From Eledone cirrhosa (taxonomy: Eukaryota), in the NCBI GenBank assembly GCA_964016885.1, contig OZ024743.1, positions 198,090,001 to 198,154,000 on the forward strand: 64,000 nucleotides of DNA, in the 5' to 3' direction. Below are positions 1 through 58,553 of this stretch, piece by piece (the first letter of the stretch is position 1; every line of letters begins with the position of its first letter). The notes under the pieces are model-generated. The model made no database searches. It saw only the letters and a program-made list of their open reading frames with translations, and was not told the origin of the DNA. Made by a program: the position numbers and the translations under genes.

Positions 1-666
1 CTCTTTCTCTCCATATAGATAAATAGATACATTTTGATATATGTACTTCTGCTCTTAACAGTGACTTTTAGTAGAGCTGCTTCAATTTAGATCAAACGCC
101 CTCTACTTCTAGCAGCGTTGGTCCCCCTGTATCCTTATATTGTAACGACCTCACCATGTGCGTTCATAGTTTCTTTTGAATCTATGATGGATGGTCGTTT
201 CTAATGCGTTTATTAAAACTAATTTCTACTAAGGATGCGTTGGTTGATGCACTTCTATGTTTCCTGGCACAGAAAAAGGTGCAACGTGTCTTTCGGCTAG
301 CACAGCAAGGTATATTAACAAATAATAATAATAATTTCTTTGGTATTTGAGAGCACAGATTACGGTACCAGCGAAGTTTGAAAATGGTAACAATGGAAAG
401 TAGGGATTTTGAATAAAGTTTCCCGAACCAAGTATAAGAAGAGAGCAATAAACATACCCTGTCAGAGTTGAAGTCATGTAGTGAGGGAAAGAATAAGTTA
501 GATCAGAAATTTGGGCATGCATCAGCATGTAGAGAGGAGAAAATAGGAAGAGAAAAGTAAGAAAACAGAAAGAGTGAAAACGGAGTAAGCTGAGAGAAAA
601 ATCGAGAGTTTCTGCGCTGGTAAAGAAACAGTTAATCAAAGAAAGAGCCAGTAGCGTTTCAGTAAA

Positions 667-945
667 AATTGTTTCTACTTTTGGCACAAGGCCAGCAATT
701 ATCCCAGTGCATTACTGGTGCTTTATTTTATCGACCCCGTAATGATGAAAGGCAAAAGTTTATCATTACGGTGTCGATAAAATAAAGCACTAGTAATACA
801 CTGTGATAATTGCTGGCCTTGTGCCAAAAGTAGAAACATGTAATAATTGTTTCTACTTTAGGCACAAGGCCAGCAATTACCCAGTGCATTACTGGTACTT
901 TATTTCATCGACCCCGTAAGGATGAAAGGCAAAGTCAACCTCGGT
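667..945. mobile_element. Cluster of three 3' fragments of tRNA-derived SINE family A (minus, plus, minus); the first two form a hairpin
   Basis: Contains aattgtttctacttttggcacaaggccagcaatt...atcgaccccgtaa(t/g)gatgaaaggc. 670-746 and 762-838 are inverted copies. Confidence 0.85.
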
Positions 946-1876
946 TGTAATAATACATAGCAAAATTAAACGAGGAAAAGAATGAAGCACGCGAGTCGAA
1001 TGAACGAAAAGCAGCTAACTTTCTCGTCACTTCACTCTAAACAATACAATTTCGTGTAAAAGAGTGGGATTTCTTCCTATTGTGCTCAGGTTGCACGGCA
1101 GCTCGATCAAGCCACCGGACAGATGTATGCAAGACAACAAAATACCATAGGAACAACGAAAAACAAAGGAGTACAAATCTAAAACGGTACACAACTGGGG
1201 ACAGTACAGGATACTGTGGAGTGGAGTTATCATTTTTGATAAGTTTAATATGAATATGAAAATAGGTTTAATATAAAAATTATCAAATTAAAATGTTAGT
1301 TATAGGAAATCGCTGAAAATTCAGTGTGAGGGAGGGAGAGGAAGAAGAAGAAGAAGAAGAAGAAGAAGAAGAAGAAGAAGAAGAACAACAACAACAACAA
1401 CAACAACAACAACTGTTAAAATTGATCCATATGAAACCGTAATTCTGGCGCTTATTTATTTACGAAAGTGTACAACAGAGAGGCCGCAAAATGGCGAGGT
1501 GTAAGTAATGGGCAAACTCAGTAGGTGGGCGTGGCTAAATGCATTATTTGACATTAGAAGACAAAATCAGGAGTTGGTAGGAGAAGTAGTGTTTCCGTAT
1601 TTAGCGAGATTTGCTGAAATAATTAGTCAGTTGTATATTTCAAACGACGACTTAAAGCCTGAATTGATTTTCCAGATTTAGATGGGAGGAAATAATATAA
1701 TTTCAAGTAACAATACGCTCAATTTGTCTGAAACAATTTACAGCCAGGATCAGTGTTCCGTGGTTTTATTGAAACTAGGCTCTCTTTCTAACAGCAGTTG
1801 GTCAATGAACAGGACAACGATAGAAGATTATAAAATGGGCAACACACGCACTCACACACACACACACACACACACA

Positions 1877-1926
<50 letters not shown>

Positions 1927-3023
1927 CTCTCTCTCTCTCTCACGCACATACACATACAAGCATATATATATATATATATATGTAAATATATATATATACA
2001 TATATGTGCGTGTGTGTTTGTGTGTACAGAAAGAGGGCGGAAGCGGAAGAAAAAGAAAGGTGGATGAATTAATAAAGTGAGCGAAAGCGAGAGCGAGAGA
2101 AAGAGACAGGGAGAGAGGGGGGGGGGGATGGACAATGTTAAAAAGAATTAAAAAGAATAAGGAGAATGAGAAGGAACAGAGAGGATATTATATCCAATCA
2201 ATGCTCATTTGAGTGTATGCTGATTCGATGTAGTTAAAAGACGAGTATTTTTAGTATCTTTTCTCTGGTGACATGGGCAGATTTCAATTGGTTATAATGA
2301 AATTACTGAACACAAACGATAACATTCTGCTAGACGTGAAGTTAAAATGTTTTAATTGAAACTGTAATACTGGAAAAACAAAAAGAACAGATAAAAATAT
2401 AATAATCTCATTCGAAGAGAAGTTAAAGTTAATATGTAAAAATTAAAATCTAGAATGTTTTTAGCATTTACATAATTTACTACATTAGTGTATTGTGTTA
2501 TGCATTCGAACAGATTGACCGCCAAACGGAATGTGGTTACAGTATTTCGTATAATAGAATTTTCTGGGAGTGACCACATGTATCACTCGTAGTATACATA
2601 GAATAACCATTTCTTAACCGTGCAAGTCAAGATTCCATTGCGTTGATATAGAACGTCCTGTTGCATGCTACCTCATAGACCTCTGACTATTGCTGGTCGT
2701 GACGTTGTGGTAATCAATGAGAAAAGTTTGATACCTCGTAAAGTTTTATCACATTCAAGAACTGGAACATAACAACTGTGACACTATCTTTGTATACCAC
2801 CAAAACTCTGTGATTGTGTGCTTGTCTGTAATTTAATACAGCCAAAACGGTGCATAATTGGAAAATTCTTTTAAAGGAAGTTGCCCTCGAAATATGAATA
2901 CAAATGGAATAAAACAAGTTTCGCGTAAATCGGAGTATGCGTTCCCGAGATACGGGGTTTTCCGGATACCTTCATAAATAGAGAGATAAAAAGATAGAGA
3001 GAAAGAGATAGTGGATGTGATTT

Positions 3024-3087
<64 letters not shown>

Positions 3088-3594
3088 CTGGTGGTGTTGT
3101 TGAATTATATTATAACAGGGGATTTCGAAGAATCAAATACAACAAAGCTGCATCTAACTCGAATTTAGTGACTGAATATTAAGTCATATGTATCATGATT
3201 TGTGTTAAAACAGCATTTATGTAGCGAATATTTCCTGCTAAATAGGAAGGGTTTCTAAGAGTGTATATATATATATATATAAATTAGAAATTGATTGACA
3301 TATATATATATATATATCTAAAATAAACACATGAAACAATCACAGGGGATAATTTGTAAAGTGTGTAAGCACACGCAGCTAGGTAGGTAACTAATTAAAG
3401 TTTAACTAGAACTTTAAATATAGATACCTTTTAAAATGATTAATCTTACTTGCATATGGATATATATATATACAGAGAGAGAGAGAGAGAGAGAGGGAGA
3501 AAGAGAGAGAGAGAGTGAGAGAGAGAGATACATGTGTGTGTGTGTGTGTGTCTGTGTGTCTGTGATTAGTGTATGTAAGTCACAGACACCCATA

Positions 3595-3727
3595 GGTACA
3601 ACTCATTTTTGCCAGCTGAGTGGACTGGAGCAACGTGAAATAAAGTGTCTTGCTCAAGAACGCAATGTTCCAACGGGAATCGAACTCACGACCTTACTAT
3701 TGTGAGCCGAATACACTAACCATGCGC
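3595..3727 (-). mobile_element. tRNA-derived SINE family B (CORE-like)
   Basis: Reverse strand has B-box gagttcgattcc followed by ttcttgagcaagacact..ctccagtccactcagctg..aaatgagt. Homologous to 9546-9685. Confidence 0.75.
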
Positions 3728-3753
3728 TTTCACACACATAAATACATATATAA

Positions 3754-3828
<75 letters not shown>

Positions 3829-3882
3829 AACACAAGCACATACATATATATAAACACACACACACACATATATATATATACA

Positions 3883-3939
<57 letters not shown>

Positions 3940-3945
<6 letters not shown>

Positions 3946-4430
3946 ATTAAATAAATGGAAACTATATTTATAAAACCATATTTATTTCATTATATATATT
4001 TCAGGGATATCATATTAACAATATGCTATGCCTTCCTCAGACAAAATACAATATAAACAGTTTTATAGATAAATAGATTTGACATACCGTAACAACATCG
4101 ACTTGTATTTGAAAAAGTTGGATTGGCAGTGAAAAAATTGTACACTTTTTTCACTGCCAATCCAACTTTTTCAAATACAAGTCGATGTTGTTACGGTATG
4201 TCAAATCTATTTATCTATAAAACTGTTTATATTGTATTTTGTCTGAGGAAGGCATAGCATATTGTTAATATGATATCCCTGAAATATATATAATGAAATA
4301 AATATGGTTTTATAAATATAGTTTCCATTTATTTAATATTGTAAATATACTCCAAATACTTGTCGAGTGCTTTTATATCAGTTATAAATATTTACTAGTT
4401 GTAACCCAACAATTTAAATATAACTTTCCA
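3940..4430 (+). mobile_element. Fold-back insertion (PLE pLTR-like) with ~198-bp inverted arms and a 3' tail, in (TA)n
   Basis: Arms 3940-4137 and 4146-4343 read as exact reverse complements around an 8-nt spacer. The right arm has CTGAGGA (4243-4249) agg..cct GAAA (4281-4284). Confidence 0.75.
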
Positions 4431-4468
4431 TATATATATATATATATATATATATAGGAACCAGTAAG

Positions 4469-4562
4469 ACCCCGACAGCTGAGCTCAAGCCGTTTCGACG
4501 GCTAATTCTGGACTAAATGAAAATTTATCCTGGTATTTAAATAGCCGATCTTCTCAAGGGGT
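4469..4562 (-). ncRNA. Type-I hammerhead ribozyme (U3-A8 core variant) in the 3' pLTR of the Naiad element
   Basis: acccc-TTGAGAA-ga(t)cggcta..long loop..tagccgtc-GAAA-cggct tgagctc agct-GTC^ggggt. Stem I acccc/ggggt, stem III acggct/agctgt, GUC cleavage triplet. Confidence 0.8.
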
Positions 4563-5666
4563 AATTCCATATATGGTCAAAGTGATTGTCAAAAATCAGT
4601 AGTAATTCTGTGGTTGCAAATTAGTAGGGGAGATGGTGGCTAAACCTGCCAGTAGGAGAAAGAGGGGAGGGGGTGGAGTAGACCCAATCAAGCGTTGGTA
4701 GTGCCAGCTACAGCTGGGCATGAGGTCAAAGAAGATACAGGGGAGGGGGAGGGGGAGGAAGTCGGAACGGTAGGTAGAACAATGGGGGGTAGAAATAGGA
4801 AATAAAAAATACTGAGAGTGAAGAAAAGCAAATAAGTGTAAAGAAAAAAGTAAAGTAAATTAAATTCTACGACCTAGGTGTCAGGCTATTGTTAGGCGAG
4901 AATAAAATAAAGAAAGAAAGAAAGAAGTAAATAAATAAATAAATAAATAAATAAGGAAATAAGTAAGAGAACTAGGTGGGACGGATAAGGCAAGGACCCT
5001 TTTAAGAGGTATAAGTACGTAAATGATACGGTGACGGGTCAACAAAAGGGGCCAAAATACTAAAGAGACTACCACGAAATAAACAATAAAGGTTTCCATC
5101 CCGGGCCAGCAACGACCCAGTGCAGCAAAGTGAACTTGTACGAGATAATAATTCTGAGTCCCGAGAAAAATAAATACTAATGCTAACTCTAAAAGATCTA
5201 AAACAAGCTACATGAAAGTTCGTACGAAATAAAGGTAGAATACGGAGAAATAAATTCAGAATCCACCCCGCCCAGAAGAAAAGCGAAGCAAGAAATACTG
5301 AAAGAAATACTGAAACGAAAAAATAAGGCATGTGCCACTAAGAAATATAGAGGGCACAGAGAATAGTGGGAGCGGTCGGAAAAAGGGGGAAAATATCCGG
5401 GGTCTAAGCCAACTGCTATAAAGGGCGGAGTCCGCCAAATCTATCAAAGACTAGGGGAGGGGGGGTGGGGGTACTAAGGCTACATGGGGCCAAAGGGCAG
5501 CCTCGGGTGGGCGAGAAAAGACGCCGACAAAGGAGAGGAGCTGGGGTAGAAGGACAAAGGAGAGAGGGGGGAAGGAAATAAAGGAAGCGATAAAAGAATA
5601 CAAAGAAGATCTTACGTCTTCCTTGGCAAGCAGGGGTTACCCATTGCAAAATCGGCAACTGGGGTG

Positions 5667-7838
5667 TTATAGCCCTAGTCTACCCCCCCCCCCCGGGTCA
5701 TTGTGGGGTTTGAGGGCGAGGTAAGTCCTACGCAATCTATGTTTACATGCAGTAACCAGTTCATCTTTCTTGTTTAGGAGTTGGTCCGTCGAAAACAGCA
5801 TTTGTAAAGTTTCCTCCGAGCATAAATTGCACGGACGGCGTCCTCCCGTGTAAGAATTGGCTCTGGACAGTAATCTCCAAGTGAGATCATAGGTGATGTT
5901 GTTGTCCTTGAGGTCCCATATGTGGCCCGAAAGTGTAGTGGCGTGACGCCGGGCCGGGTTTCGGAAGGTATGTCTATGTTGGTATAGCCGGGTCTTGAAG
6001 TCACATGCGGTAAGTCCTATATAGGCTTTGTTGGAGGTATCCGTCCTCACGTTGCACTGGTAGATCACATTACGGTCTCTGCATCTATTGTCGAGTGGGC
6101 AAATAGATCTATCCGGGCAGTTACACCTCCTGGTCGGTTCTCCACTGCTAATTAGGTTATTTCTGCCATCGGGGTTGAGTTTTTTGTTGTTAGAGGAGAC
6201 GATGTTTTGTGCGAAGTTTGGTGTAGTGCTGTAAGAGAGTTTGATGGTATTTTTGTTAATTATGTTGTGGTAGCGGTGTTGTAATGGGAAGTGTTTTTCA
6301 ATGAGTCTAAAGAATAGTTTCCCGATGGGAGTAGTCACCTCTGCGTTGTGGGGAGGATTAAACCATGTTACATTGCGTGAGCGGCGGTGTCTCCTGCTGG
6401 TTCCGCTAATGGGAGCTGGACAGTAGGATATTCACTCCCGGAAACCACTCCGCTTGAGGGCCTGGTTGTAATAAGGCGCATGTTCATCGAATATCCGCTC
6501 ATTAGCTGACAAACGGGATATGCGGAGGGAGATGTTTTTGACCAGGTTGTTTGTGATGTTCCTAGGATGGTTTGATCGGCGGTGGATGTAGTGCAGATTG
6601 TCATTAGGTTTCCTGTATGGGTAGTACAGGTCGTTTTCGAGGTCGAGGGTTACGTCCAGAAAGTTTACTCGGGTCAGGGACGTTTGTAGGGTTATTTTAA
6701 ATCCCCAGTCGCGGAAGAATCTGATTAATTGTTTCCGGACCCGATCTGTACTACTGGGGTTGTACCCTTTAAGGGTAAGGAGCCCATCATCACGGTACAA
6801 TCCACCACCGAATGCAGGAAACATATCAGTGAGTTTGGCTATTAGGAATAATCCTATAAGATCAGTGACCTCCGCCGAATCTGTGGCGCCCATGCTGACG
6901 TCGAAGGGTGAGTCGGGAGCTCTTTTTATCCATTTAGAGTCGTCAAAGAGTAAGACTGTCTTCCTGGCGTGGAGGATGATTTTTCTTTCCTGGTCGGTGA
7001 TGGGCACGAGTGTTTCGGCGAAGTCCAAGGCGGCAGTAAGTAGCGGTAAGGTGATTGAAGCATAGTAGCTCTCTATGTCGAACTGTATGAATTTAGTTTC
7101 TCGTTTATCCTCCATATTGCTGAACCAGGAGATTACTTCCTGGGTGTTGATCCATAGGCTAAGTCGGGTGTGTTGCTTGACTTTTGGTATCACGCGGTCT
7201 AGGATTTTTTTGCTGATTCTCCCTATGTCGGACTTCGTTGGGTTAATAAGCCTGATGGAGGGTTTACAGTCAAAATCGGATTTATGGTCCTTCAGTGTGA
7301 AGTATGGTGTCCGTGGGTCTAGAGGTTCCGTGCGGTCGGCGACCCCGAGGCTGGAGGTGATTTGTTGTCCATCTCGATTTATGTCCTCGATACAAGAGTG
7401 GTTGGCCTTTTTATAGGTGGAGTTTAGACTGCTCCTGATCAGTGTGTGGTATCTGTCAGGGTTGACAAAGTATAGGTTCCCAGTTTTATCCGAATGCACC
7501 ATGATGTCATTTGTGTTATCATACTCTGTTAAGTTGCTACGGAGTTTTTGTAGGAATCGGTTGTGTCTGGGTTTAAATTTAATGTTCTTGACCAGTTGGA
7601 AGAGGGCATTCTCGAAGGGTGCGAGCAATGGGTTCAGGGGCGGAGATTTGTAGGTAATAAATCCGAATCTCTCCTTGGTGCCGAAGTCTTGGTTGTCGCA
7701 ATATCTGTCATAGAAAAAAGTTCTCCATCTAAGTCTTTTCGCAAATAGATCAATTTTTTGCGTGAGCATCCGAAGGTAAAGTTTTTTCGGTGGGATTGGG
7801 ATGTTCTTGGTAGAGAAGTCAATGTTGTGTTTTCGCAT
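5667..7838 (-). CDS. PLE reverse transcriptase / GIY-YIG endonuclease (~723 codons, one in-frame TGA at 6432-6434)
   Basis: Likely start MRKHNIDFSTKNIPIPP. Motifs: DKT (DKG-like), FDIESYY, MGATDSAEVTDL, YRDDGL, FLDVTLD. Track ORFs 6432..8099 and 5667..6338 are in the same frame, separated only by TGA (..SGFRE*ISYCP..RRSRNVTWFNPP). C-terminal part has CNCPDRSICPLDNRC, VIYQC..AYIGLT, RLYQH, CNLCSEE and LLNKKDELVTACKH, as in Naiad-clade PLEs. Confidence 0.9.
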
Positions 7839-8169
7839 GGTGCGGGTGAAATGAATTGAGCTTAGCAGAAAAGTCTGGATACGGCGTGGTAGGGTCGGAA
7901 AGTGCTCTACTACGGGAGTAGGAGCTAGATAACGAAGGAAATGTGGTAAGGAACCAGGTGGACCATAACGCACCAAAGTACTCAATACTTGAGGTAGTAG
8001 AGTGGGTAATAGGAACCAGTAAGACCCCGACCCCAACGCTTGATTGGGTCTACTCCACCCCCCTCCCCTCTTTCTCCTACTGGCAGGTTTAGCCACCATC
8101 TCCCCTACTAATTTGCAACCACAGAATTACTACTGATTTTTGACAATCACTTTGACCATATATGGAATT

Positions 8170-8263
8170 ACCCCTTGAGAAGATCGGCTATTTAAATACC
8201 AGGATAAATTTTCATTTAGTCCAGAATTAGCCGTCGAAACGGCTTGAGCTCAGCTGTCGGGGT
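8170..8263 (+). ncRNA. Type-I hammerhead ribozyme (U3-A8 variant) in the inverted 5' pLTR
   Basis: Reverse-complement copy of 4469-4562: TTGAGAA 8175-8181, GAAA 8236-8239, GTC 8256-8258. Confidence 0.8.
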
Positions 8264-8354
8264 CTTACTGGTTCCTATTACCCACTCTACTACCTCAAGT
8301 ATTGAGTACTTTGGTGCGTTATGGTCCACCTGGTTCCTTACCACATTTCCTTCG

Positions 8355-8357
<3 letters not shown>

Positions 8358-8425
<68 letters not shown>

Positions 8426-9338
8426 AACACGCACACGTCTATATATATAAACACTCATACATAAATAAACAGATACACACACACACATATACACACATAT
8501 ATACATATAAACACACACACATATACACATAAGCAAACTCACATACATATATACACACACACATATACATATAAACACACACATAATATATATACACACT
8601 CATATACATATATATACACGCACACATATACATTTAAACACACATATACATATATATATACACACATATACATATATATATACACACATATATACATATA
8701 TACACACACTCATATACATATATAAACACACACACATACATATAAACACACACACATATAACATATATATACACACACATATCCATATAAACACTCTCAT
8801 ATACATATATATATATATACACACACATATGCATATAGACACACACTCATATACATATAAACACACACATATATACATATAAACCCACACATATACATAT
8901 ATACACACACACACATACACATATACACACACATATACATATATATATATACACACACACATAAATACACATATACACACATATAACATATATATACACA
9001 CACATATAAATATAAACCCACACACATATACATATACACACACACTCATATACATATATATATACACACACTCATATCCATATATATACACACATACATA
9101 TAAACACACACATACATATATATACACACACTCACATACATATGAACACACACATATATACATATATATATACACACATATATATGTATATACACACTCA
9201 TATACATATATATACACACACATATAACATATATATACACACACACATATACAAATAAACACACACACACATAACATATATACACACACATACATATATA
9301 CACACACTCACATACATATAAACACACATATATACACA
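8358..9338. repeat. Degenerate (TA)/(CA) compound microsatellite, ~1 kb
   Basis: Continuous acacacatatat-type array; source of the many CVYI-rich spurious ORFs. Confidence 0.95.
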
Positions 9339-9399
9339 CCGCCAATTTACTGTGAAACGCATTATTAAAACATTTTTCTTTCCTGTAACATTTATTTTG

Positions 9400-10086
9400 T
9401 CACTCTCTCTAAAAATGCTACCCCTCTCTCATTAAATCTTTATGCATTTCTCACCCTCTCTATATACCACAGCGCGCCTCACTCACTCTCACTAATCCAC
9501 TAAATTCTCTTCCCCTCTCTATATACCACTACCCAACTCTATCGTGGAGGCTCGTGGCCTAGTGGTAAGAGTGTTGGACTCATGATCATAATGTAGTGGG
9601 TTCGATTCCTGGGTTGCGTGTTGTGTTCTTGAGCAAAACACTTCATTTCACGTTGCTCCAGTATACTCAGCTGAAAATGAGTACCTCACAATACTCCCTC
9701 TATCACTAGGGCTATATACTCTCCCTTTTCTCTATAATCCACTACATACCTCACTCTCTCTCACAATTACCCCTCTCCCACAAAACCACAAAATTCTTTC
9801 CCATTCTTAATTCCCACTCTCTCACTAAACCAATAAATTCTCTCCCGCTCTCTATATTCCACAACATACCTCACTCTTTCTCACAGTTCGCCCGCTCTTA
9901 CTAGACGAACAAATTATCTCCCCCTCTATTTCCACTGCATACCTCACTCTCTCTCACAACACCTTCTCACTAAACCAACACTTTCTCTCCCGCTCTCTAT
10001 ATCCCACTACATACCTCACTGTCTCTCACAACCCCCCCTCTCTTACTAGCCCAGACTATTCTCTCTCCCTCTCTATATCACACTAC
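9400..10086. repeat. Degenerate CT-rich minisatellite (~60-70 bp unit) interrupted by a SINE
   Basis: Recurring aaattctctcccnctctctatatnccactacatacctcactctctctcacaa motif. Confidence 0.7.
9546..9685 (+). mobile_element. tRNA-derived SINE family B (CORE-like)
   Basis: A-box tggcctagtgg, B-box ggttcgattcc, then tgtgttcttgagcaaaacactt, which resembles the 5' half of the CORE domain. Confidence 0.8.
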
Positions 10087-10437
10087 AATATTTTTTACTT
10101 TGAAACAACAAATGTCCCCATCTTCTATAAAGAACGACAAAGTTCTCCATCTTCTGTGCCACGATTTGAACCCCTAGGGTGTGGGGGAGATGTTTCTTTT
10201 TTTTGGTGGTGTGCTTTTGTTGAATTATGTGACAGGAGTTTAAAATATGTGGTGGTGGTGTGGTGGTGTTGGTGGTGCTTTTTTATATATCTATCTATCC
10301 ATCTATCTATCTATATACTACTAAAATTCTGAGATTATGCATTTCAACGGCCATTGATAACGAGTGTTGCTTCAATTTAGAAAGTGAAACATTTTACCAG
10401 GATTAGAATATAGTTCTTATATTATATCATTATTTAA

Positions 10438-10836
10438 GAGGCAATGAATTGGCAGTATCGGTAGAGGGTCGGGCGCCAAGCTTTGACGCATACAGTTACG
10501 GCCCTTGCCATTCTGAGCTCAAATCCCGCCGAGGTTAACTTTGCCTTTCATCCTTACCGGTCGATAAAATAAAGTGTCAGTAATACATTGGCTAATTAGT
10601 GGCTTTGTGCCCAAAGTAGAAGCAATTATTTATTTTATTGTGGGCAGTGAATTGGCAGTATCGGTAGAGGGTCAGACGCCATGCTTTGAAGCATAGAGTT
10701 ACGGCCCTTTATCATCTGATTTTAAATCCTGTCGAGGTTCACTTTGCCTTTCATCCGTACGGGGTCGATAAAATAATGTACCAGTAATGCACTGTGGGAT
10801 AATTGCTGGCCTTGTGCCAAAAGCAGAACAAATTAT
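10438..10836 (+). mobile_element. Two tandem full-length copies of SINE family A
   Basis: Each has an A-box tggcagtatcgg, a degenerate B-box (gagctcaaatcc / gattttaaatcc), a central gcctttcatcc..gtcgataaaata segment and a ttgtgcc..aa(g)t/cagaa(g/c)caattatt tail. Confidence 0.88.
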
Positions 10837-10859
10837 TTATTTTATTGGACTCGATAGAT

Positions 10860-10969
10860 TCGTAGGAGTAGCGGTGGGGCTCGATATACACGGCAACGTT
10901 TCTTGGGCATTTAAAATCCGCCAGAGCCCATCTCTTCGGGTCTGAACAAATACGCCTTATTCCAGAGAC

Positions 10970-10972
<3 letters not shown>
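10860..10972 (-). mobile_element. Short pLTR-like fragment with a degenerate minimal hammerhead
   Basis: Minus strand reads CCGAAGA gatgggc..gcccaa GAAA cgTT, with palindromic AACGTT stem III. Abuts (TA)n. Confidence 0.45.
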
Positions 10973-11019
<47 letters not shown>

Positions 11020-11022
<3 letters not shown>

Positions 11023-11118
11023 CGAAGGAGGTGTGGTAAGGAACGAGATGGACCATAACGCACCAGAGTACTCAATACTTAGTCCAGAAATAGCCGTCGA
11101 AACGGGTTTAGCTCTGCA
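11020..11118. mobile_element. Rearranged fragment of the Naiad-type pLTR (inverted tail joined to the 3' half of the HHR)
   Basis: 11020-11080 matches 7930-7990. 11079-11116 (ttagtccagaaatagccgtcgaaacggg) matches 8216-8251. Confidence 0.8.
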
Positions 11119-11330
11119 GTATATTGCCAAATATACTATACATACATTCATCGCTATTTTAGAGCATCAATACTAATACCTAATTTTTGCTGGACCGGCA
11201 ATCGCTCTGTGTAATCAGCTCCTGATTATTACTGGAATTCTATAAGGATCTAGCTACTATAATTTTCAGCAAAAGCAGGGAAGTGCGTGGTTTTGATAAA
11301 CGCCAAACAGCGAGAAACAGACTGTCAGCC
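11119..11330 (+). mobile_element. Non-coding HHR-bearing repeat (retrozyme-like family C), copy 1
   Basis: Homologous to 31170-31550. HHR at 11289-11330: ggtt-TTGATAA-acgc caaaca gcga-GAAA-cagact-GTC^agcc. Confidence 0.72.
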
Positions 11331-11336
11331 TCTCTC

Positions 11337-11460
<124 letters not shown>

Positions 11461-12691
11461 TAAGTGAGCAAATTATATAGAGGAAGAATCCACTCCAGTA
11501 TTAGACTGGTAGTTTCTTTCATCTGCCATGAATGGATGAAAGGCACCGTTGACCTCGGTGGGATTTGAAGAAGAACGGAAGGAATAACGCAAACCATTCT
11601 ATACGACGTCCTAATGATTCTTTCGATTCAACCCTTGTATTAGTATTATATTATATTTCAGGTTGCACTTCTGCTAGGAGAAACAACTGGTAGATAATAT
11701 CAACCCGAGAAAGACCATTGGAAGTACTTTTTGGGGGTCTGATCTAATGTTTGGCTCTTTTCCTTTTATACTATAAATAAAACAACATTATCTAATCTGT
11801 TATTCTTCTAAGTGTGAGATTTTTGGGAGATTCGGTTGCTATATCTCGCATAAATAGTGACCGCTTAGAAGATCAGCCATTAGTCAAGGTTTTGTTAGTG
11901 GTAGACATTAATGCATCTCAGAGATTTCTGCCTTTGTTTTATAGTTTCATTTGCTTATAAAAGTTCCGAGAGAAGGCAGTTGAACATAATTATGTGTTTA
12001 GATATTAGACATATATCTAATTTATTGTTTCTCCATTTCACTTCACCACTTACCCAATGTGAGAGCTATGAAAAAAAAAAATAGTATATTCTGAAAATAA
12101 TCTTTTTACTTCTATTATTAGCTGAATGTCTCTTAATTTATCGAAAAATGATATTGAAAATAATGTAATGCCTTTTAAAATACAGACGTTGCACACCAAC
12201 TAAAGAAATAACTAAATGCATAAAAACACATACACATAAAAACTGTTTTATTTTTAATATTTATTTTATAAAGGATGATGCAGGAAAAAATAGTGAAAAC
12301 GAGAGACATTCAAGATAATATATATCGCAAATCATTCTAAATACTTAGACTGTATCACTCTGTCGGTTATGATATGTTTTCTTTTATTCTTTAGAAAATT
12401 GTCTATGGACACTAAAACGGATTACACATTGACGCTAGTTAAAAGTTTGCGATCTCACGTTGCCAATAATTCAACAATTATAGAGATAACAAAAACACAA
12501 AAAGCAAAATACTTTCAACATACTTCTAAATCACGCAGATATATAGAGCCCAGGAAAATGCTTCCGACGTCAAATATCTTCTCTGCTCACCAGAGATTAT
12601 GTCTTACTAACTACAATGATTCAAGTATGAGAACATATTTGGCAATGAGGCTGAGGCAAAATACTATGAAACACAATCGGTAAATCTTATA

Positions 12692-12756
<65 letters not shown>

Positions 12757-12973
12757 TTGTATGTATGTGTGCGTGTGCATGTGTGTGTGCGTATGGATGT
12801 ATGTGCGTATGGATGTATGTACGTGCATATGTGTATGTTTGTGTGGGGTTTATCATGTAAATGTGTGTGGATAAACAATGTCTGTATCATATATTATATT
12901 ACATATATACATACAGCTCTCTTTCTCTCTCTCACTCTCTCACTCACTCTCACTCTCTCTCTCTCTCTATTTC

Positions 12974-13035
<62 letters not shown>

Positions 13036-13082
13036 AATGTACGTACAAACAGAAACTATATATAATGTATATTATATATTTC

Positions 13083-13265
13083 GATTGGCAGTATCGGTAG
13101 AGGGTCGGACGCCATGCTTTGAAGCATAGAGTTACTTCCCTGTATGATCTGAGTTTAAATCCCGCCGAGGTTAACTTTGCCTTTCATCCTTACGGGGTCG
13201 ATAAAATAAAGTACCAGTAATGCACTGGGTAATTGCTGGCCTTGTGCCAAAAGTAGAAACAATTA
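13083..13265 (+). mobile_element. SINE family A, near full length
   Basis: A-box, B-box-like gagtttaaatcc, central domain and tail all present. Confidence 0.88.
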
Positions 13266-13499
13266 TATATTTCATACATTTATGTATAATTTATATATAT
13301 TCCACGCACGTGCACACACATATTTTTTAATTCTTTTATTCGTCAACTTTGTTTGCTGATTTCAGTAATTGACTGCGGCCATGTTAAGCACTTCCGTGAA
13401 ATTTCTTGTCAATGATATCGACCCAAGTACTTATTTCATCTCAACTCTTTTTCTCGAAATGCTACGTATGATTATGGATGTATGATTATGTACACTTGA

Positions 13500-14425
13500 A
13501 GGCCTTCTCAAAAGATGTTTCCTTAACCACGAAACTACTGTTAAGCAGTCGGATAAACTATCAACCACGAAGCTTGCAAGTTACGCCTATCCCCTCAAGG
13601 ATGCAGGTGTGGACGTTTTTTTTTCATGAAATGGAAAATCCTACAAAAAATCAAGTCTTTACCTGAACGGTAAGAAGACATGTGAATTGTGCAAAAATTA
13701 ACGATCAGCGTACTATAAAAACACGCCTAAATATAAATACTGTCAATTTCAACCACTGCCCCCAAATGTTGGAATACATGACTAGAAGAATCCGGGATAA
13801 AATCTAGACTACCACAATACACAACCTTTCATTGCGAGTTTATCTCCACCTCTTATTATAAAACTTACCCTTCTATTTTATCTGTGTAACACACAAAAAA
13901 GCAAAGAATAAAGGAGCACCTCGGCTACGAAGGTCTAACCTCTATGATACTTATCTAGCTCCAAATAAAACTTTTAGGTACGCAGCCTGCTATATCTTTC
14001 CAGTCCACATTATAAATTATTCAACCTTAAGCACGAACAACGCCATCCTATATTGTCCAAATCTAAGTCAGCGTTATCCCGCCTTATTTAACGAACAATC
14101 TATGTCCCCCGCGATCTATTCCCTTCCATAAGAAATTTCGAGTAAAACTTTAATCTTAACAAACCCATAATGGAGATATCGAACTGATGTGCCGTAGAAA
14201 TAAGAAATTTCCCAGCCAAACGCACGAAATCGACATGAAAATGTGAGTTTAACCAAATTTATATATATGTATATTCAGAAGATCCCGTTAAGGGTGAAAG
14301 CAGCGATTCTCTGCTTTAATCTGTTATTTTAATAAATATTTTCTCTACGGTTCTTATATATTTGATATATATTTATCCTTATCGAGCCCTCTTTGGTTTT
14401 TAGTCTTCAAATTTATTATTATTAC

Positions 14426-14430
<5 letters not shown>
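13500..14430 (+). pseudogene. Highly decayed PLE 3' end (GIY-YIG remnant plus pLTR with degenerate HHRs)
   Basis: QRIKEHL at ~13902-13922. HHR-like cores: CTGATGT..acgcac GAAA tcga (14184-14233) and CAGAAGA tccc..gggt GAAA (14276-14299). The 3' part is shared with 33912-34027 and 36658-36690. Confidence 0.45.
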
Positions 14431-14494
<64 letters not shown>

Positions 14495-14498
<4 letters not shown>

Positions 14499-14803
14499 CT
14501 GTTCTATATTTTTGAGAAGAGGAATTATTTACATTATATACATTGGACGGATAGGTGTCCTCATCTTGTTTTGTTGTTAACAACGTTACGGCTGATGTAT
14601 TCTCCAGCCTTCATCAGGTGTCCTACTGATGTTATTATTAACGTTTTTTCATGGCACTGCCTAGTACAATTCTAAGCAGAGACCTGAGCAAATGTTAATA
14701 ATAACATCAGTAGGACACCTGATGAAGGCTGAAGAGTACATCAGCCGAAACGTTGTGTTAACAACAAAACAAGATGAGGACACCTATCCGTCCAATGTAT
14801 ATA

Positions 14804-14808
<5 letters not shown>
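14495..14808. mobile_element. Inverted pair of pLTR-like arms, each with a minimal hammerhead, in (TA)n
   Basis: Arms 14530-14646 and 14690-14808 are near-perfect reverse complements. Confidence 0.82.
14714..14759 (+). ncRNA. Canonical minimal type-I hammerhead ribozyme
   Basis: gacac-CTGATGA-aggctga agagtaca tcagcc-GAAA-cGTT^gtgtt. The palindromic AACGTT stem III is typical of dimer-acting PLE HHRs. Confidence 0.85.
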
Positions 14809-14866
<58 letters not shown>

Positions 14867-15508
14867 TTCATATGCGTAAACACACATACACAGATATACG
14901 CGCATATAATCGTATATATGTATAGGTATATGTAAATTTACATCATGACAGACCAAGGCCTTCACCAATCACCATTCACATACACTGACCAAATTTCACA
15001 TAAAATCCCTCATCAAAGTGTACACACGTTCACATGTATGTACAAGTATATAAATGTACGTCTGTGTGCGAGTATATAAGGGTGTGTCTCTCCCTACCTC
15101 TCACTGTCTCTCTATTTCCCCCTCCCCCCCTCTCTCTTTTGCAACACTCCATTTCCTGAAGAAACCTGTGTCCGAAACATCACACCCTCTTCTACTTCCT
15201 TCTAAGCGTGATACTTATAAGTCTTTGTGCGTTTGCATCACTGTGTTTGTTTTGTTATTTTTTTAACTAAGGATGTATGATTATGTATTTATACACACAC
15301 ACACACACACCACACACGCACACACACACATACACACACACACACGCGCGCGCGCGCACACACACACACATATATATGCACACACTCACGCATATATATA
15401 CATATATATATGCATGTGTGTGTATGAGAGCTTCTACTTGGGCATGTGTTTACATCATGTGAGTACATTGCACAACGCATGCAGGTGTTGTATTTTGTAC
15501 ATTATGTC

Positions 15509-15545
<37 letters not shown>

Positions 15546-15547
15546 AG

Positions 15548-15626
<79 letters not shown>

Positions 15627-16147
15627 ATTTCGTTTCTGTATGTCTCGTTCCCTACATTTGTACATTCATAACTTCGGAAATATATCTAATATACACATAC
15701 ATAAAGAAAATGAAAAGAACAGAATACAGAAGAATATAATTTAATGTAAAATATATCTAAGATAACTGTAATCGTTTGTATTTCTCTGACATATACTTAT
15801 GACAAACCTAACTTTTAGAATCCACGCAAAGATATTATGGCTTTCGACTAGTCTTTATATTGTTTTATAGTCAACATAAATCCTTGCAATGGTTAGATCT
15901 TTATCAAAGTTTTAATACAACGAATGTCTATTTGCCACCAAAATATTGTCGCCAATCACTCAGCATTGCAATATTTGAAATGTGGGAATTCTCTAAAATA
16001 TAGCATAGTGTAATCTCACGTTTAAATATGTAAATGTATTTCGGTCATAGCTGAATGTTTGGGATGAAAAGAAGAAACATAAACTAATAAATTAGACACA
16101 CGTACACACAGAATCAAACACTCACAACGGCAAACAAATACAAACAG

Positions 16148-16329
<182 letters not shown>

Positions 16330-17298
16330 TAATACGCACACAGAAACATGAATACGTACAAAGAAACATAAACACACAAGAGGCAGCCATACACAGACAC
16401 AAAGAAACACGCAGAAGCAAACTAACACACAGACATAGAAAAACCAAATGCAAAACAAAATAAAATAAAATAACGAAATCACTGAGAGATATACTCACAC
16501 ATTAATGTAAACAGACACCCATACACAAACAAACACATTCACATACAGACACAGACTGACACACTCGCATTCAGACATATATAATACAATAGTTTCAGCT
16601 ATGCAGCCAAAGAACACAAAAACGTTGCAGGGAAACAGTAGTATATAGAAATATGATTTCCCATTTCAACAAAAAGCATTATTGTCTCGGTCAGTTAGTT
16701 GAGAGCTTTTAAATAATAAAACAAACAGCGCACAACGATAGGGAATGCATCTATAGAGATTTGGAAGATAAATCAAATAGATATTTGTGGAGAATGTGTC
16801 GTGTGCTGCATTTATCAGTAAAATATCTTCACAGCTTCACTATAAATGAATGAGAACAAAGGGAATGACACTTCAAAAGTTAGAAGTAGAAATATGGCAT
16901 CATCATGACATGAATATTAAACTGAAATTTGTCATTTCTTTATTTCTTTTTTTCTTATATAGACAAACGTAGATTTTGTTTTATAGATAGTGTTTGCTAT
17001 TTTAGTTTATAACAGTAAATAAAAACAACAGCGATAAAAGAAAAAAACCCACAGAAAACATAACAAACACACACAAAAAAACCTTAAAAATAAAACAGGT
17101 GGAAATGTGTTAAATATAAGGGTCAGACTATTGAGCAGTATATAATGGCAATTGTGTTTGTTTTGATTGTTGGATAAACAATATTAGAACCCCAAATATA
17201 TTTCTGTTGTATTTCATTTAGCTTTGTCCAAAACATTAAATTAAAGTTGATAATACTATATATATATATACACCTTCCTCACTATTCTTTCAACATTA

Positions 17299-17410
17299 TA
17301 AATCCCGCCGAGGTTAACTTTACCTTTCATCCTTACGGGGTCGATAAAATAAAGTACCAGTAATACACTGTAATAATTGCTGGCCTTGTGCCAAAAGTAG
17401 AAACAATTAT
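17299..17410 (+). mobile_element. SINE family A, 5'-truncated
   Basis: aaatcccgccgaggttaactt...gtagaaacaattat. Confidence 0.85.
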
Positions 17411-18258
17411 ATTATCTATTTAAAATCTCAGATATCTTGCAGTGCTATTAGAGAAAACAATGAAATAACCAGCGTGCAATGATGATATGAATCTCATTGA
17501 GTCTAATAACTCAATAAAACGGCGGTGGTATCATATTGCTTTTGTTTTCAGCAGAGATGAAATCCATTATTGCAAGGAGATATACGGTTGACAGAACTTT
17601 GAATCAATGTCATTCTGGCACACATTTTATCAACTCGGAAGCAATGAAAAAGAAAACAGGACATCTAATTTGGCACTTCCCTTTAGTGAGTTCATATAAT
17701 ACCAAAGCTGAATTTGTCATTCATCGCTGGATAAAAAATAAGTGTCGGCAGATAACTAGGATCGTGGAACAAAGGCTATATAATTTTTGAAAAATACATT
17801 TGTTTTATCTAGATGTGTCAGATCATTTCTGTGCTGCTTTTAGCCAAAACGTAGGTCATAGCGGTATTCAAATTAATATGAACCTTATGATTAAAACCAT
17901 CACGTTAAAAGCGAAATGTTCACTTGAATGTATTAATTGAAGTTGTATAATCTGCAATGCTGTAGAATTCAGCTACGCAGAAACGATTAAAAAAAAAATG
18001 ATAAAGAAATGTCTATTCGTACACACAATGTTCTGTGGAGACACTTTTAATTTCATTGTGATGATTATTCCATCAGTATACACTGTATTCTAATGATTAT
18101 ATAATAACTTCATTACAGTAACATAGACTAGGTGTTACATTACACAAACAAGGCAATTCGTGTAAACATAGAGTACTCAATAAAAGTTCTAACTAAAACC
18201 GAATATTTATAGGAATATAAAGCCACACACACTCTCCCTCTCAGGCACACACGACTCC

Positions 18259-19177
<919 letters not shown>

Positions 19178-19181
19178 TGTG

Positions 19182-20178
19182 TAATCTGAGATTTTCGAAT
19201 ATTAATAATAATATTCGATTCGTTTGCAATTATGCAAACAGTCTCTTTAAAGCCATGTCAGTAGAATTACCTCGTCATTCCTGCTCTTGTGTTGACATGT
19301 AAACAGAACTGCAGACGCTAATTTTTCTGGTGATTTCCCTTCATCAGTACAGTATGCGAACTTACCTGCCAACTGTCATAGCTAGTGAAAAAATATATTT
19401 TCTAAAATATACAATATACGACTGATCGGCCTGATTTGCATATTAGCAAACTGCCTGATGAGTCTGATCTGCATATTACCAAAACCACTGAACAGCCAGA
19501 TTTGTATATTAGCAGACAGGCCAGTCAGTTTCATGTATATGAGCGATTAATGGCCGGCTTTGCCATATTTAAATAACTAACAGATAACTAATCGCTCTAC
19601 ATGGCTGAATACAATAAATATAATCTGAGGTTTTCGAATATTAATAATTGTTTCTACTTTAGGCACAAGGCCAGCAATTACCCAGTGCATTACTGGTACT
19701 TTATTTTATCGACCCCGTAAGGATGAAAGGCAAAGTCAACCTCGGAGGGATTTGAACTCAGATCGTAAAGGGACGTAACTATGTTGGAAAGCATGGCGTC
19801 CGACCCTCTACCGATACTGGCAATCCACCGCCCTTTCGAATATTAATAATAATATTCGATTCGTTTTCAATTATATAAACAGCCTCTTTAAAGCCATGTC
19901 AGTAGAATGATTCCGTCATCTTTGCTATTGTTTTAGCATGTAAACAGAACTGCAGATTACATTTATTGTATTCAGCCATGTAGAGCAATAAACTATTTGT
20001 TAGTCTTTTGAATATCGCAAATCCGCCCATTAATCGCTCATATACATTAAATTGACTGGCCTATCTGCTGATAAGCAAATCTGGCTGATCAGTGGGTCTG
20101 GTAATATGCAGATCTGACTGATCAGGCTGTCTTCTAATATGCAAATCAGTCTGATCAGTCACTGTATATTTTAGAAAA
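19182..20178 (-). mobile_element. Non-coding HHR element: ~439-nt unit, partial repeat and inverted 5' arm (retrozyme-like family D)
   Basis: 19183-19315 repeats at 19622-19956 (with a SINE inserted). 19953-20178 is the reverse complement of ~19398-19627. Minus-strand HHR at 19308-19353: actgta-CTGATGA-agg..cca-GAAA..GTC^tgcagt. Confidence 0.75.
19649..19833 (-). mobile_element. Full-length SINE family A with a 17-bp target-site duplication
   Basis: TSD tttcgaatattaataat at 19632-19648 and 19834-19850. A-box-like and B-box (gagttcaaatcc) present. Defines the SINE as ~185 bp. Confidence 0.92.
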
Positions 20179-20759: not shown

Positions 20760-20821
20760 GCTTAGTTCGGATCTAGCTGTCGAAACGGCCGGAGCTCAGC
20801 TGTCGGGCTCCTGACACTTTT

Positions 20822-35711: not shown

Positions 35712-36646
35712 AAAATGTTCGAGACCACGATGGCAGAGCTCAAGCCGTTTCGACGGCTATTTCTGGACTAAATTAGAATTGTTAGCGTGGTAATAAATAG
35801 CCGAACTTTCAGGGGTAATTCCTTATATAGGAAGATTGTAGTTGTGCAATGGATTGGTCAACATTTTTTTTATCTCAATTTATTAACTTTTTAATTTTAT
35901 AACTTTCCACTCTCAGATTCCTCCAGAATTCTTTTTTCGCCTGCTTTCTAGCTAGCCTAATTTCATGCACACTCCTTACAATTTGCTGTATAGAATCCAC
36001 TTTCAACGCTTGACCGGCACCACACACTCCCTCATTGTTCTACAGGCAAGTTCAGCCACCCCACCTCCCACCCTTCGCCATGAAAGATTTAATTGTGTTT
36101 ACAAGAAATTTGACCAATCCTTTTGGCAACTACATTCTTCCCATATAAGGAATTACCCCTTGAAAAGTTCGGCTATTTATTACCACGCTAAAAATTCTAA
36201 TTAAGTCCAGAAATAGCCGTCGAAACGGCTTGAGCTCTGTCGTCGGGGTCTGGAACATTTTACCCACTATTACCCACTCTATTACCCTATTACCCACTCT
36301 ACTACCGCGGCGTGAAGGAATCCAACCCGCCGGCTAGGTGGTTCCGCCGCCGACCCGTACGCTTGCGAGTCGCTGCCGGGAAAGGCAAGCGGCAAGGCGG
36401 CGTGTATACGCGACACGACGCCTTCCGTCTTCCACCCGATAAACGTTCCCTTGTTCGTACATGCCTCCCCGCTTCGATCGCGAGAAAGAACGTAACCCGC
36501 CGGCGAGACGGTTCCGCCGCCGACCCGTAAGGCTGCGAGTAGGCGCCGGGGAAACCGACCGCTCACGGTCATATCTACTCGGCCAGAGTATTAAGTACTC
36601 TGATGCGTTATGGTATATCTGGTTCCTTACCACACTTCCTTCGTTA
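35712..36646 (+). mobile_element. 5'-truncated Naiad-related PLE: inverted pLTR arm, 3' UTR, pLTR with HHR, tail carrying a GC-rich insert
   Basis: 35712-35861 is inverted relative to 36110-36260. 36004-36060 matches the Naiad 3' UTR (8034-8097). 36587-36646 matches 8297-8358. (TA)n flanks. Confidence 0.85.
36155..36249 (+). ncRNA. Type-I hammerhead ribozyme (U3-A8 variant)
   Basis: acccc-TTGAAAA-gttcggctattt..aaatagccgtc-GAAA-cggc ttgagctct gtc-GTC^ggggt. Stems are kept despite substitutions relative to 8170-8263. Confidence 0.78.
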
Positions 36647-37165
36647 TATATATATATGCTTAAACTTTAATCTGTTATTTTAATAAATAAATATATATAT
36701 ATATATATATATATTTAGGAACTAAAAGATTGATTCTTTTTAGCTTCCCGTCCCCACGTAAAATTTGTAAATCAGTGGCTAGTTGAAAGATAGAGTCCCA
36801 TCGGGTGCCAGTTGCTAATTGCTTTACCGTGTCGGTTGTCACAAACAGTCATGACCGGCATGGGCTGGTGTTTGGATTCTGTCGATCGATTGGTTATTGA
36901 TTAGGCGATACCCGCTGATGAAGCCGTATAAGCCGATTGTGCATTGTTGCATAATATATGCAGACAGATGGTGCAGTGCATCTTACTGATGCATTAGTGC
37001 GGCTGAAACTCAAGCCCGGGAACCTTATAGGCACCCGTTTTATGTGTGTTGTGTTGAGGCAAATAACTATGTGTATACTCTGGTAATGTATCTTATATTG
37101 CCCATTGAGTGCGCTGAGATACAACCGGTACTGGCATTGATAAATATGCTGGGTCCGTCAACCCT

Positions 37166-44104: not shown

Positions 44105-45670
44105 ATGATGATGGCTGCCCCCTCGTTATCGAGTATGGCCATTACACGAAAAAAATATATATATATTAATAACAATAATTATAATAATAACAACAATAAT
44201 AATAACGACAACAACAACAATAATAATATACATATATATATATATACACAGACACACGCACATACATAAACATATCTATACACACACACACACACGATAG
44301 CAACTAACAGTGCTGAGATCGAATGTGGCTTTTTAGCCCAGCCAATGATCTAAAATGTCTTGCACAGAGTCAGCAAACAAAACATTCACTGGGAATAGCC
44401 GGCTGTGGTTGGAGTTCATGTACTATTTCATGTCGTTTGAGCCCTCCTGCTGATTTACATTCTCTACCACATGCTTGGCAAGCATGATGAGTATCATCTC
44501 CAACAGCAGCCTGATAGTCAACCACTGCTCTTACTTTATGACTGCGAAGATGACTTTCGAGTCCAGCTTTGCTGAGGCAGAGTCTCAACCACTCCAAGTC
44601 GTTTACCATACACATAGATATATGATTCACTGTACTTCTTACCAGGGGCAGGTTGTTACATGACGACGGTTTTCTTGAGACTGACAGTCAATCCTAGGGC
44701 AGTGCAAGCGTCAGAAAATGTATTCAAAATGTGCTGCATATAACTCTCTGTGTGCGCTACAAGATCGCACTCATCTGCATACAAGAGGTCTCTTATGATT
44801 GATGTAAATACTTTTATTTTGCAGCAAAGCGTCTGATGTTAAATATGCTGCCTGAGGTTCGATATCGGATGTAAACACCATGCTCGCAATTCCTGAATGC
44901 AATACAGAAAACCATTGCAAAGTATATGGCAAACAGGGTCGGTGCTGGAATATCCCCCTGTTTCACTCCATTTTTTACTGAGATAGGCTCCGACATGTTA
45001 CCTCCGACATTAACCCAAGCCTTCATGTCGTCATGGAAAGACCTAACTAAAGCAAGGAACTTATCAGGATAACGAAGTTTCTGGAGAACCTTCCATAATG
45101 CATTTCTGTTAACAGTATCGAAAGCTTTTGTCAGATCGACAAAAACCTGATACAGATCCAAACCTTGTTCCATGCACTTCTCCTGGAGCTGTCTAGCTGA
45201 GAAGATCATATCAGTAGTGCCGCGTCCAGCTCGAAAACTAGATTGACTTTCAGGAAGAACACAATTTGCAATGTGTGTCAGCAGACGGTCCAGAAGCACC
45301 CTACATAAAACTTTCCCTACGACAGAAAGCAATGGTATACCTCTGTAATTCCCACAATCATTCCTGTTACCCTTTCCCTTGTACAAGACCACCATTACTG
45401 CATCTCTCCAGTCCTCAGGTACGGATTCATTAGCCCATATCCTGCCAAACAAAGAGGGAAGACGTTGCAGGATTCTCTCACCACCATATTGTAGGAGCTC
45501 AGCATGTATGCCATCTATACCTGGAGACCTTCCACTGTTCAGCTTCGAGATAGACACTGCAACCTCCACAAGCGTCGGAGGTTCTGCGAGAGCTACTTTC
45601 ACAGGACTTTCTGGAATGAGATTGAGGAAATCTTCATTGACGACAGACGGCTGATTCAAAAGATCATCAA
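44105..45670 (-). mobile_element. RTE-clade (BovB-like) LINE, 5'-truncated and internally deleted
   Basis: ORF 44814-45683 has RSPGIDGIHAE, YKGKGNRNDCGNYRGI, LPESQ, FVDLTKAFD, GVKQG. It continues as DLLYADE after a stop. C2H2 fingers (CQACGRECKSAGGLKRHEIVH) at 44370-44630. RTE-like 3' tail atggccatactcgataacgagg..ccatcatc at 44107-44143. Confidence 0.88.
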
Positions 45671-45702
45671 TACATACATGCATACATACCTACGTACATA
45701 CA

Positions 45703-48700: not shown

Positions 48701-49730
48701 TGGTTGAAAAACTGCATGCCTATCAGCAAAAAATTAGGCATGGATATGTTGCCAGGAAGCTCCAGAGTGAGAGTAATATAGATAAGGAAAGTAGTCTATC
48801 TTGGACCAACAACCGATATATTGGCTCCCACTTTGAAGGATACGCTTTTGCAATCCAGGAACAGGAGATTTGCACGAAATACCTGATTCACAAAAGAGAT
48901 AGGGATGCAGGCAAAACACCTAGATGTGATAACAAGTGCAGACTCTGCAGAACTAACACCGAGGATATCACCCATCTCATCAGCAGCTGTCCATGAGGCA
49001 TGATGTAGTGGCTAAAACCCTGTACAATGCGGTTCGTAAAAAACATAGCCCCGATAATAAACACATTAAAAGCTACAGCAATGTGGAAGACATCCATGTA
49101 CATAATATGAAAGAGTACTGGTGGAATGTTCCAGTAAAAACCCCAATAAAATGCAGGCATAACAGACCAGATATTATGTTATGGGACAGGGAGAAGAAAG
49201 CATGCACAGTAGTGGAAATTAGCTGCTCAGTAGATGCCAATATGATATCAAAGATTAGTGAAAAGGAGAACATTTATGAAGAACTGATAATAAATCTGCA
49301 GATACACCACCCTCATTACACCTTCAGATTTATGCCTGTGATTATTGGGGCACTGGGGTATGTTAGTAACTGCCTCAATACAAATATTGAGAAGCTAGGC
49401 TTCACAAGAACAGAAAGAACACAACTAGTTAGGAAATTACAAGTACAATCCATTAATGGAACAGTAAAAATATGTAAAACATTCCAAAAACTTTGCATCT
49501 AATAACTGAATATACACATATACAGATGCAAAACCTATACACATCCACACATACAACTCAAAACATACACATCCACACATACAATAACATCCATATCTAC
49601 ACATGCATGCATACATACATATTTACCTAGTTGATGTTGTGTAAATTCCAATGAGAGAGTCTTGTGTCCATGTTAGAAACCGACTCTCTCTCTATTGGTA
49701 AAACTTTGTGAAATTATAAAACCAGAAGAA
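45703..49730 (+). mobile_element. R4/Dong-clade non-LTR retrotransposon (RT plus REL endonuclease), full length, multiply disrupted
   Basis: N-terminal GYMNRMKLHWDE..KQLRQQ. RT motifs WLDYRKAFDSV, GIFQRDSLS, FFVDDLKLYA. CCHC CRLCRTNTEDITHLISSCP, RHDVVAK, REL motif RPDIMLWD..VVEISC. 3' UTR hairpin at 49648-49698. Confidence 0.92.
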
Positions 49731-58519: not shown

Positions 58520-58553
58520 GTTGAAAAGGAGTGGAAAAGATGGGAAAGACCAC

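Follow-up and report, generated by a model that had tools for sequence, protein, structure and literature searches.

Paired reverse transcription starts and a probable minor route through hammerhead cleavage in a young Hydra-clade Penelope-like element of Eledone cirrhosa

The 64,000-nucleotide stretch of Eledone cirrhosa DNA analysed here, referred to as the window, carries what its domain order, motifs and (TA)n target identify as a young Penelope-like element (PLE) of the Hydra clade. The explanation that we favor for the structure of its copies, with a probability of about 0.65, is that this element is inserted by twin priming and that the predicted hammerhead in its pLTR cuts a small share of the templates. 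A cut (TA)n target would prime two reverse transcriptions, one from each of its ends, which start at +20 and at +100 of the RNA; the two cDNA arms, both presumably copied from the same RNA, would then be joined head-to-head. The predicted hammerhead would cut only a small share of these RNAs; ends at +1 would be run-off from the uncapped ribozyme product, and filler bases at the scissile bond would mark a jump across the cut or its repair. Cleavage would be a side route and is not the normal step by which the template end is made. The window element itself is an ordinary kind of element. Thousands of young copies of its family record template ends, and they hold three indirect traces of PLE hammerhead cleavage, which size it at about 3% and not as the usual boundary. 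The use of one +20 and one +100 start per insertion is also a simple account of two oddities of PLEs, namely that their 5' copy is inverted and that only one end bears a tail. In the literature open to us, that is, apart from subscription papers and supplements, we found no report that maps PLE junctions to the cut or describes the +20/+100 pairing.

Positions are numbered from +1, the first G after the GUC of the hammerhead, which is 8028 and 4473 on the minus strand and 8259 on the plus strand, and an arm is a single uninterrupted copy of element sequence. The features of the window element are as follows.

5667 to 7838, minus strand: open reading frame with RT (RWR, DKT, YRDD), CxCx5C linker and C-terminal GIY-YIG, Hydra type
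4454 to 8031, minus strand: long arm, made up of a complete 3555-nt unit and a tail of 20 nt, with its 3' end at start site +20 on (TA)n
8033 to 8358, plus strand: short inverted arm, which begins at about -226, crosses the intact hammerhead and stops at start site +100, where (TA)n follows
8029 to 8032, minus strand: junction letters GGTC, to be read either as templated GUC with an extra G before it or as a stutter of the first post-cut bases
4431 to 4453, no strand: (TA)n target at the +20 end of the insertion
from 8359: longer (TA)n at the +100 end of the insertion
4469 to 4562, minus strand: predicted type I hammerhead of the 3' pLTR, predicted cut 4474/4473
8170 to 8263, plus strand: second hammerhead copy, carried intact by the inverted arm, which reads through its predicted cut at 8258/8259
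4514 (minus strand) and 8218 (plus strand): position -41 (AGTCC, loop II), main 5' end of short family copies

The inverted arm (plus strand, 8033 to 8361) is 99-100% identical to the 3' pLTR and tail, and no target duplication is discernible in the two (TA)n flanks of the window insertion. A preliminary description of this DNA had put cleavage sites at 8028 and 4473, and these are indeed the predicted sites: one predicted cut separates 8029 from 8028 and the other, at a distance of 3555 nt, 4474 from 4473; the tail after 4473, which it gave as about 16 nt, is 19-20 nt long.

In the window ORF the RT core comes first and the endonuclease motifs follow, and the endonuclease lies after the RT in all 58 scorable homologues out of 120 compared, among which there were no named Hydra reference sequences. 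The linker CNCPDRSIC stands before VIYQC..YIG, and a similar motif is found in 107 of the 120 homologues; DKT is shared with 102 of them, and RWR in the window ORF corresponds to an RWK-type motif in 113. CNLCSEE and NKKDELVTACKH are the CxxC and CxH around the conserved endonuclease E and N. The 3' ends of the window copy and of nearly all of 91 sampled arms are on (TA)n. A Pfam search with both parts of the ORF returned no family at E≤0.1. RT followed by GIY-YIG, RW[K/R], DKT, CxCx5C and CxxC/CxH near the endonuclease E/N are features of the Hydra clade, as are (TA)n targets, partial tandems, an inverted 5' copy and a pLTR hammerhead, according to the available part of its description (PMC8557442). 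The window family differs from the clade as described there in its hammerhead core, UUGAGAA or CUGAGAA, which is non-canonical, in its 6-bp helix III, and in having 80 nt between two 3' ends where the clade has a 30-40-bp tail. The label Naiad, given to the element in the preliminary description, had to be dropped. Naiad also has (TA)n targets, pLTRs and inverted 5' copies, but what is available of the same report gives it an N-terminal endonuclease, and hence the reversed domain order, with DKA and no canonical hammerhead (PMC8557442); in the window ORF the RT precedes GIY-YIG, the motif is DKT and not DKA, and a hammerhead fold is present. By eye, and outside any alignment to reference elements, CCHH is absent from the window ORF. 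An in-frame TGA at 6432-6434 was common to none of 79 matches in other loci, and its reading as selenocysteine was rejected because it is private to the window copy.

The predicted hammerhead has a 5-bp helix I, the core UUGAGAA..GAAA..GUC, a long helix II and a 6-bp helix III with a palindromic loop. The minimum-energy fold of 4468-4566 on the minus strand is a three-way junction of -23.2 kcal/mol in which the pair probabilities of stems I-III are 0.48-0.98, and folding thus supports a predicted hammerhead in the pLTR with three helices around the core and a cut after NUH. An Rfam scan of positions 1-20000 gave no hammerhead among 122 matches at E≤1. The core UUGAGAA fits the U3-A8 variant, which is known from Schistosoma Cercyon (PMC4209133), and position 7 varies between G, U and A. 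One subfamily has the core CUGAGAA (4/4 loci), which in the standard register is a 3-8 mismatch, and for this reason the assignment of the non-canonical core is only tentative. A 3-8 mismatch such as G8A should impair hammerhead cleavage, in line with the C3G and G8C results in the available part of the Poseidon study (PMC11167929); a literature search for core variants gave no result. The type I motif in the pLTR, the long helix II and the short helix I are shared with known PLE hammerheads, but in the metazoan motifs helix III is minimal or absent and cleavage is weak, whereas the 6-bp helix III of the window family is like that of monomer-active fungal forms (PMC4209133). Cleavage and circularisation by PLE hammerheads have been proposed, and the available part of that report states that in vivo evidence is absent (PMC4209133). 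Elsewhere in the genome, L003-L009 (G000:C2:356030058-356031983) is an array in which seven mini-units of 299 bp (-99..+221) follow one another in tandem, all of them with a whole hammerhead but lacking 20 nt of loop II; it is retrozyme-like, non-autonomous and belongs to the family of the window element.

The inverted insertions use two start sites. When arms ending at +100 were selected, 62 of the 71 assigned partners ended at +20..+23 and none at +100, and the other nine partners were broken or mis-assigned. Every one of the 62 partners that end at a start site thus makes a pair of one +20 with one +100, both on (TA)n, and this pairing was repeated in seven long insertions, in the window copy and in two sister families. 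Since the outer ends pair one start of each kind, we infer that the inverted arms arise by twin priming, in which two cDNAs, probably from one RNA, are joined at their 3' ends. The pairing agrees with the behavior of the related enzyme of Poseidon from Anolis carolinensis, which starts at two internal sites and extends both target strands (PMC11167929). In Poseidon, too, two internal RT start sites define the tail, targets are AT-rich, both DNA strands are cut and extended, and the ribozyme is dispensable for insertion; in the available part of the Anolis work, none of the RNA reads had its start at the cut, and insertion in vitro still took place with ribozyme mutants, both of which count against the explanation favored here (PMC11167929). 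The window family differs from what is given there in having a minor genomic class that ends at the cut and in using one start site per insertion end.

The window junction is the point from which the preliminary description had argued. On the minus strand it reads ...CAAGCGTTGG GGTC GGGGTCTTAC, and the claim was that it falls on the predicted cleavage site with an apparent duplication of GGGGTC. The junction is real and lies beside the cut, but the exact sense match begins at 8031 (-3) and keeps the GUC, which a 3' cleavage product would not have. The long arm hence starts 3 nt before the predicted cut, or at the cut if a stutter precedes, and it can be said to start at the cut only if GGTC is a stutter, that is, a GGGGTC duplication seeded by a 2-nt GG microhomology. 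GGTC can also be read as templated GUC with one extra G. The junction is therefore ambiguous between an uncut template with one added G and a cut template with a stutter, and one junction cannot decide. We lean slightly towards the second, in which the long arm would be a +1 run-off from a cleavage product with a short stutter. An ordinary truncation of an uncut template 3 nt before the cut, with one untemplated G, is a serious contender that falls a little short of even odds. It takes the GUC in the exact match at face value; moreover, starts at -3 make up 7 of the 100 rows listed for a pattern with 241 matches, the partner arm in the window crosses an intact ribozyme, and long arms end almost anywhere. 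On the other hand, long arms end near the window site at a rate of only about 0.07% per nt, or about 0.5% per 7-nt window, another long arm (L282) starts at +1, GGGGTC, GGTC and GGGGTCTC duplications occur at the cut bond elsewhere, and stutters before +1 are seen in L038 and L110. Because the site was chosen after the fact, the window junction by itself is only suggestive, and a truncation here is compatible with the result on cleavage obtained for the family.

That result begins with a minor class of starts at the predicted cut. An almost unselected sample of arms was drawn with a pattern on +36..+51, which gave 5932 matches, and 91 of the first 100 were mapped; starts within +18..+36 are under-captured in this sample, and a search with GUC-containing DNA, which is biased to uncut-type copies, was left out of the rates. 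Three of the 91 arms start at +1 (95% CI 0.7-9%), about 8-10 times the rate at neighbouring positions. In hand tallies of targeted patterns, the first 100 of the 241 matches mentioned above had 50 starts at +1 against 26 over -2..-6 (p 2e-21), with 12 ambiguous at -1; the first 100 of 2249 matches to a second pattern had about 29 at +1 against 32 over +5..+13; and a pattern with A/T-rich flanks had, in all of its 91 rows, 75 at +1 against 16 at -1/-2. The first two of these patterns exclude blunt CCCCGGGG palindromes. The base preceding +1 is T or A in 45 of the 50 starts, as would be expected if RT adds A on template run-off. Among 35 distinct +1 arms, 22 have an inverted partner, and this partner is at +1 in 15, at -1 in two and elsewhere in five, the paired +1 ends being separated by 1-3 spacer letters and showing no microhomology. 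In the unselected set the partner was also at +1 for all three +1 arms as against 0/68. Since arm ends are correlated away from +1 too (L131, L146, L219), paired ends alone do not prove a cut.

The third trace is found in continuous copies, of which 29 rows (hand tally) have 2-10 extra bases at the cut bond. Eight of these rows, representing seven independent events, have A/T-rich filler, and the remaining inserts are G-run growth or the short duplications already named. A whole ribozyme lies upstream in six of the seven filler events but in only 10 of the 91 unselected arms (p 1e-5), and the seventh event (L424) has identical filler in both arms. At other bonds there was no A/T filler in 24,467 arm-bond observations and only one tandem duplication; the contrast in filler rate has a p between 1e-5 and 0.06, its denominator being an estimate of 15,000-60,000 arms genome-wide. 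Taken together, the sharp +1 peak, the paired arms and the filler at the scissile bond make it fairly probable, as judged from genomic copies, that the hammerhead of the window family cuts occasionally in vivo. The claim that templates end at the cut was thus too general, although some of them would end there.

It is possible but unlikely that the +1 peak owes nothing to ribozyme chemistry and comes instead from an RT stall at the helix III base or G run, a host nuclease or a minor transcription start. The CUGAGAA subfamily, in which cleavage should be impaired in the standard register, nevertheless shows the peak and contributes 27 of the 75 +1 starts and three of the seven filler events; +1 is a pyrimidine-purine step, and an extra G is found in seven of the 75 +1 starts. 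The sister families also speak for such a source. These two young Hydra families, B and C (L341-L370; 714 and 719 aa), have canonical hammerheads, and as in the window family their two 3' ends are separated by about 80 nt; their cores are canonical, with a 2-3-bp helix III and a GUA site, and their start sites are near +37 and +115-117, A/T-rich flanks blurring the start calls. No sharp +1 peak was found in family B, where 5-7 of 100 rows are at +1 (hand tally; p 0.43 for +1 alone and 0.02 for -2..+1 pooled), and the 23 rows of family C (hand tally) did not yield a clear one. The lack of a sharp peak could be due to a short helix III that works only as a dimer (PMC4209133), an analogy that was drawn post hoc. 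Several findings run against a source other than the ribozyme. A helix III stall predicts ends at -1, where few partner arms lie; most arms read through the predicted cut; the filler at the cut bond is tied to a whole ribozyme upstream; the extra G is rarer at +1 than at -41; and the fold-backs that were counted carry spacers and not microhomology.

The usual 5' end is elsewhere. Of the 91 unselected arms, 55 start at -45..-34, 10 beyond -100, 17 between -31 and -3, three at +1 and six at +7..+17; one of them, L190, is a G-run variant with its start at -35. Another 6797 arms begin at -41 and are preceded by a non-consensus base (rows tallied by hand), which in some is a subfamily base. The TTAGTC at -41 presumably resembles an initiator. 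An extra G precedes 10 of 40 (TA)n-joined starts at -41 but only 7 of 75 at +1 (p 0.03, hand tally), and in L1 and SVA an extra G at the 5' end has been ascribed to the cap in the part of the source available (PMC3287187). As the main 5' end, with its initiator-like sequence and its extra G, -41 is likely to be a capped transcription start inside the hammerhead, the cap signal being modest, and the 5' end of an RNA starting there would hold only half of the ribozyme. In some arms (L252, L265, L293, L294, L012, L020 and others) the start is near -41 but the other end lies within the ORF (+141..+918), at a junction that is not (TA)n, which suggests template switching to the 5' portion of the mRNA.

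Long copies differ from the short ones. Fifty-one long arms, being all mapped rows on contigs C1-C3 from the first 100 of 194 ORF-spanning matches, and leaving out the unresolved L262, L283 and L311, the array of 299-bp mini-units and any arm whose end lies before about +920, have starts from +141 to -2044; L282 is the only one at the cut, and none is at -45..-34 (0/51 against 55/91 unselected; p 3e-15). The preliminary description had proposed mapping such junctions relative to the GUC and had itself set scatter against its claim, and scatter is what was found. The 5' ends of long copies are scattered, and cleavage does not set the usual template end.

This difference between long and short copies bears on another alternative, which is doubtful in our estimation, that the hammerhead cuts in vivo and sorts templates, long and tandem copies being made on unit RNAs that have been re-joined into circles and lack a 5' end. 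A cut in the 3' pLTR would strip the RT start sites from the linear mRNA, so that only -41 stubs would be copied from it, and the freed 3' piece would give the +1 class. Circular templates would explain why the long arms avoid the transcription start, why the units of an array are near-identical (0-4 differences per 1450 nt within arrays against a mean of 9 between arrays) and why there is A-rich filler at the seams. Against them, the starts of three of 14 long family C copies fall inside the ribozyme and differ by no more than about 10 nt, and read-through of tandem arrays also gives long templates. Directly 5' of one four-unit array, a 55-bp piece of the ORF (+1714..+1771) is repeated in tandem at least 44 times (L321:8-2431, minus strand).

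Self-priming or fold-back on an antisense template, which has been proposed for inverted pLTRs (PMC3846280), is improbable as the origin of the inverted arms. Some inverted junctions are palindromic or have microhomology, as it would have them, but the outer ends of the two arms coincide with the RT start sites, one of each and both on (TA)n in all 62 cases. In addition, the head-to-head junctions of L085, L237, L386 and others near -41 have poly(A)/poly(T) centres that look as though the cDNAs had been tailed before joining, and those of L085 and L386 resemble two joined tailed cDNAs. The Penelope of Adineta vaga likewise has a head-to-head inverted pLTR and a tail on one end only, and the available account explains it by self-priming (PMC3846280); the ends of the window family fit two primings better. 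The notion of the preliminary description that hammerhead cleavage sets the usual template end is very hard to sustain, for although the window copy and L282 start at or beside the cut, a start at the cut itself was seen in only 1 of the 51 long arms and in 3 of the 91 unselected ones, and the majority of the latter lie at -45..-34.

Other repeats are present in the window. Its 3934-4349 is a 208-bp near-perfect palindrome with no spacer and its 18722-18812 a 91-nt hairpin; miRNA models matched these two stretches only below their thresholds. Older pLTR pieces of the window element's family, with 81-92% identity, lie at 11016-11120, 20762-20810, 35722-35828 and 36141-36650. Broken ORFs at 44814-45689 (minus strand), 47556-49502 (plus), 55403-60550 (minus) and 61942-63570 (plus) appear by eye to be those of non-LTR retrotransposon RT and associated proteins.
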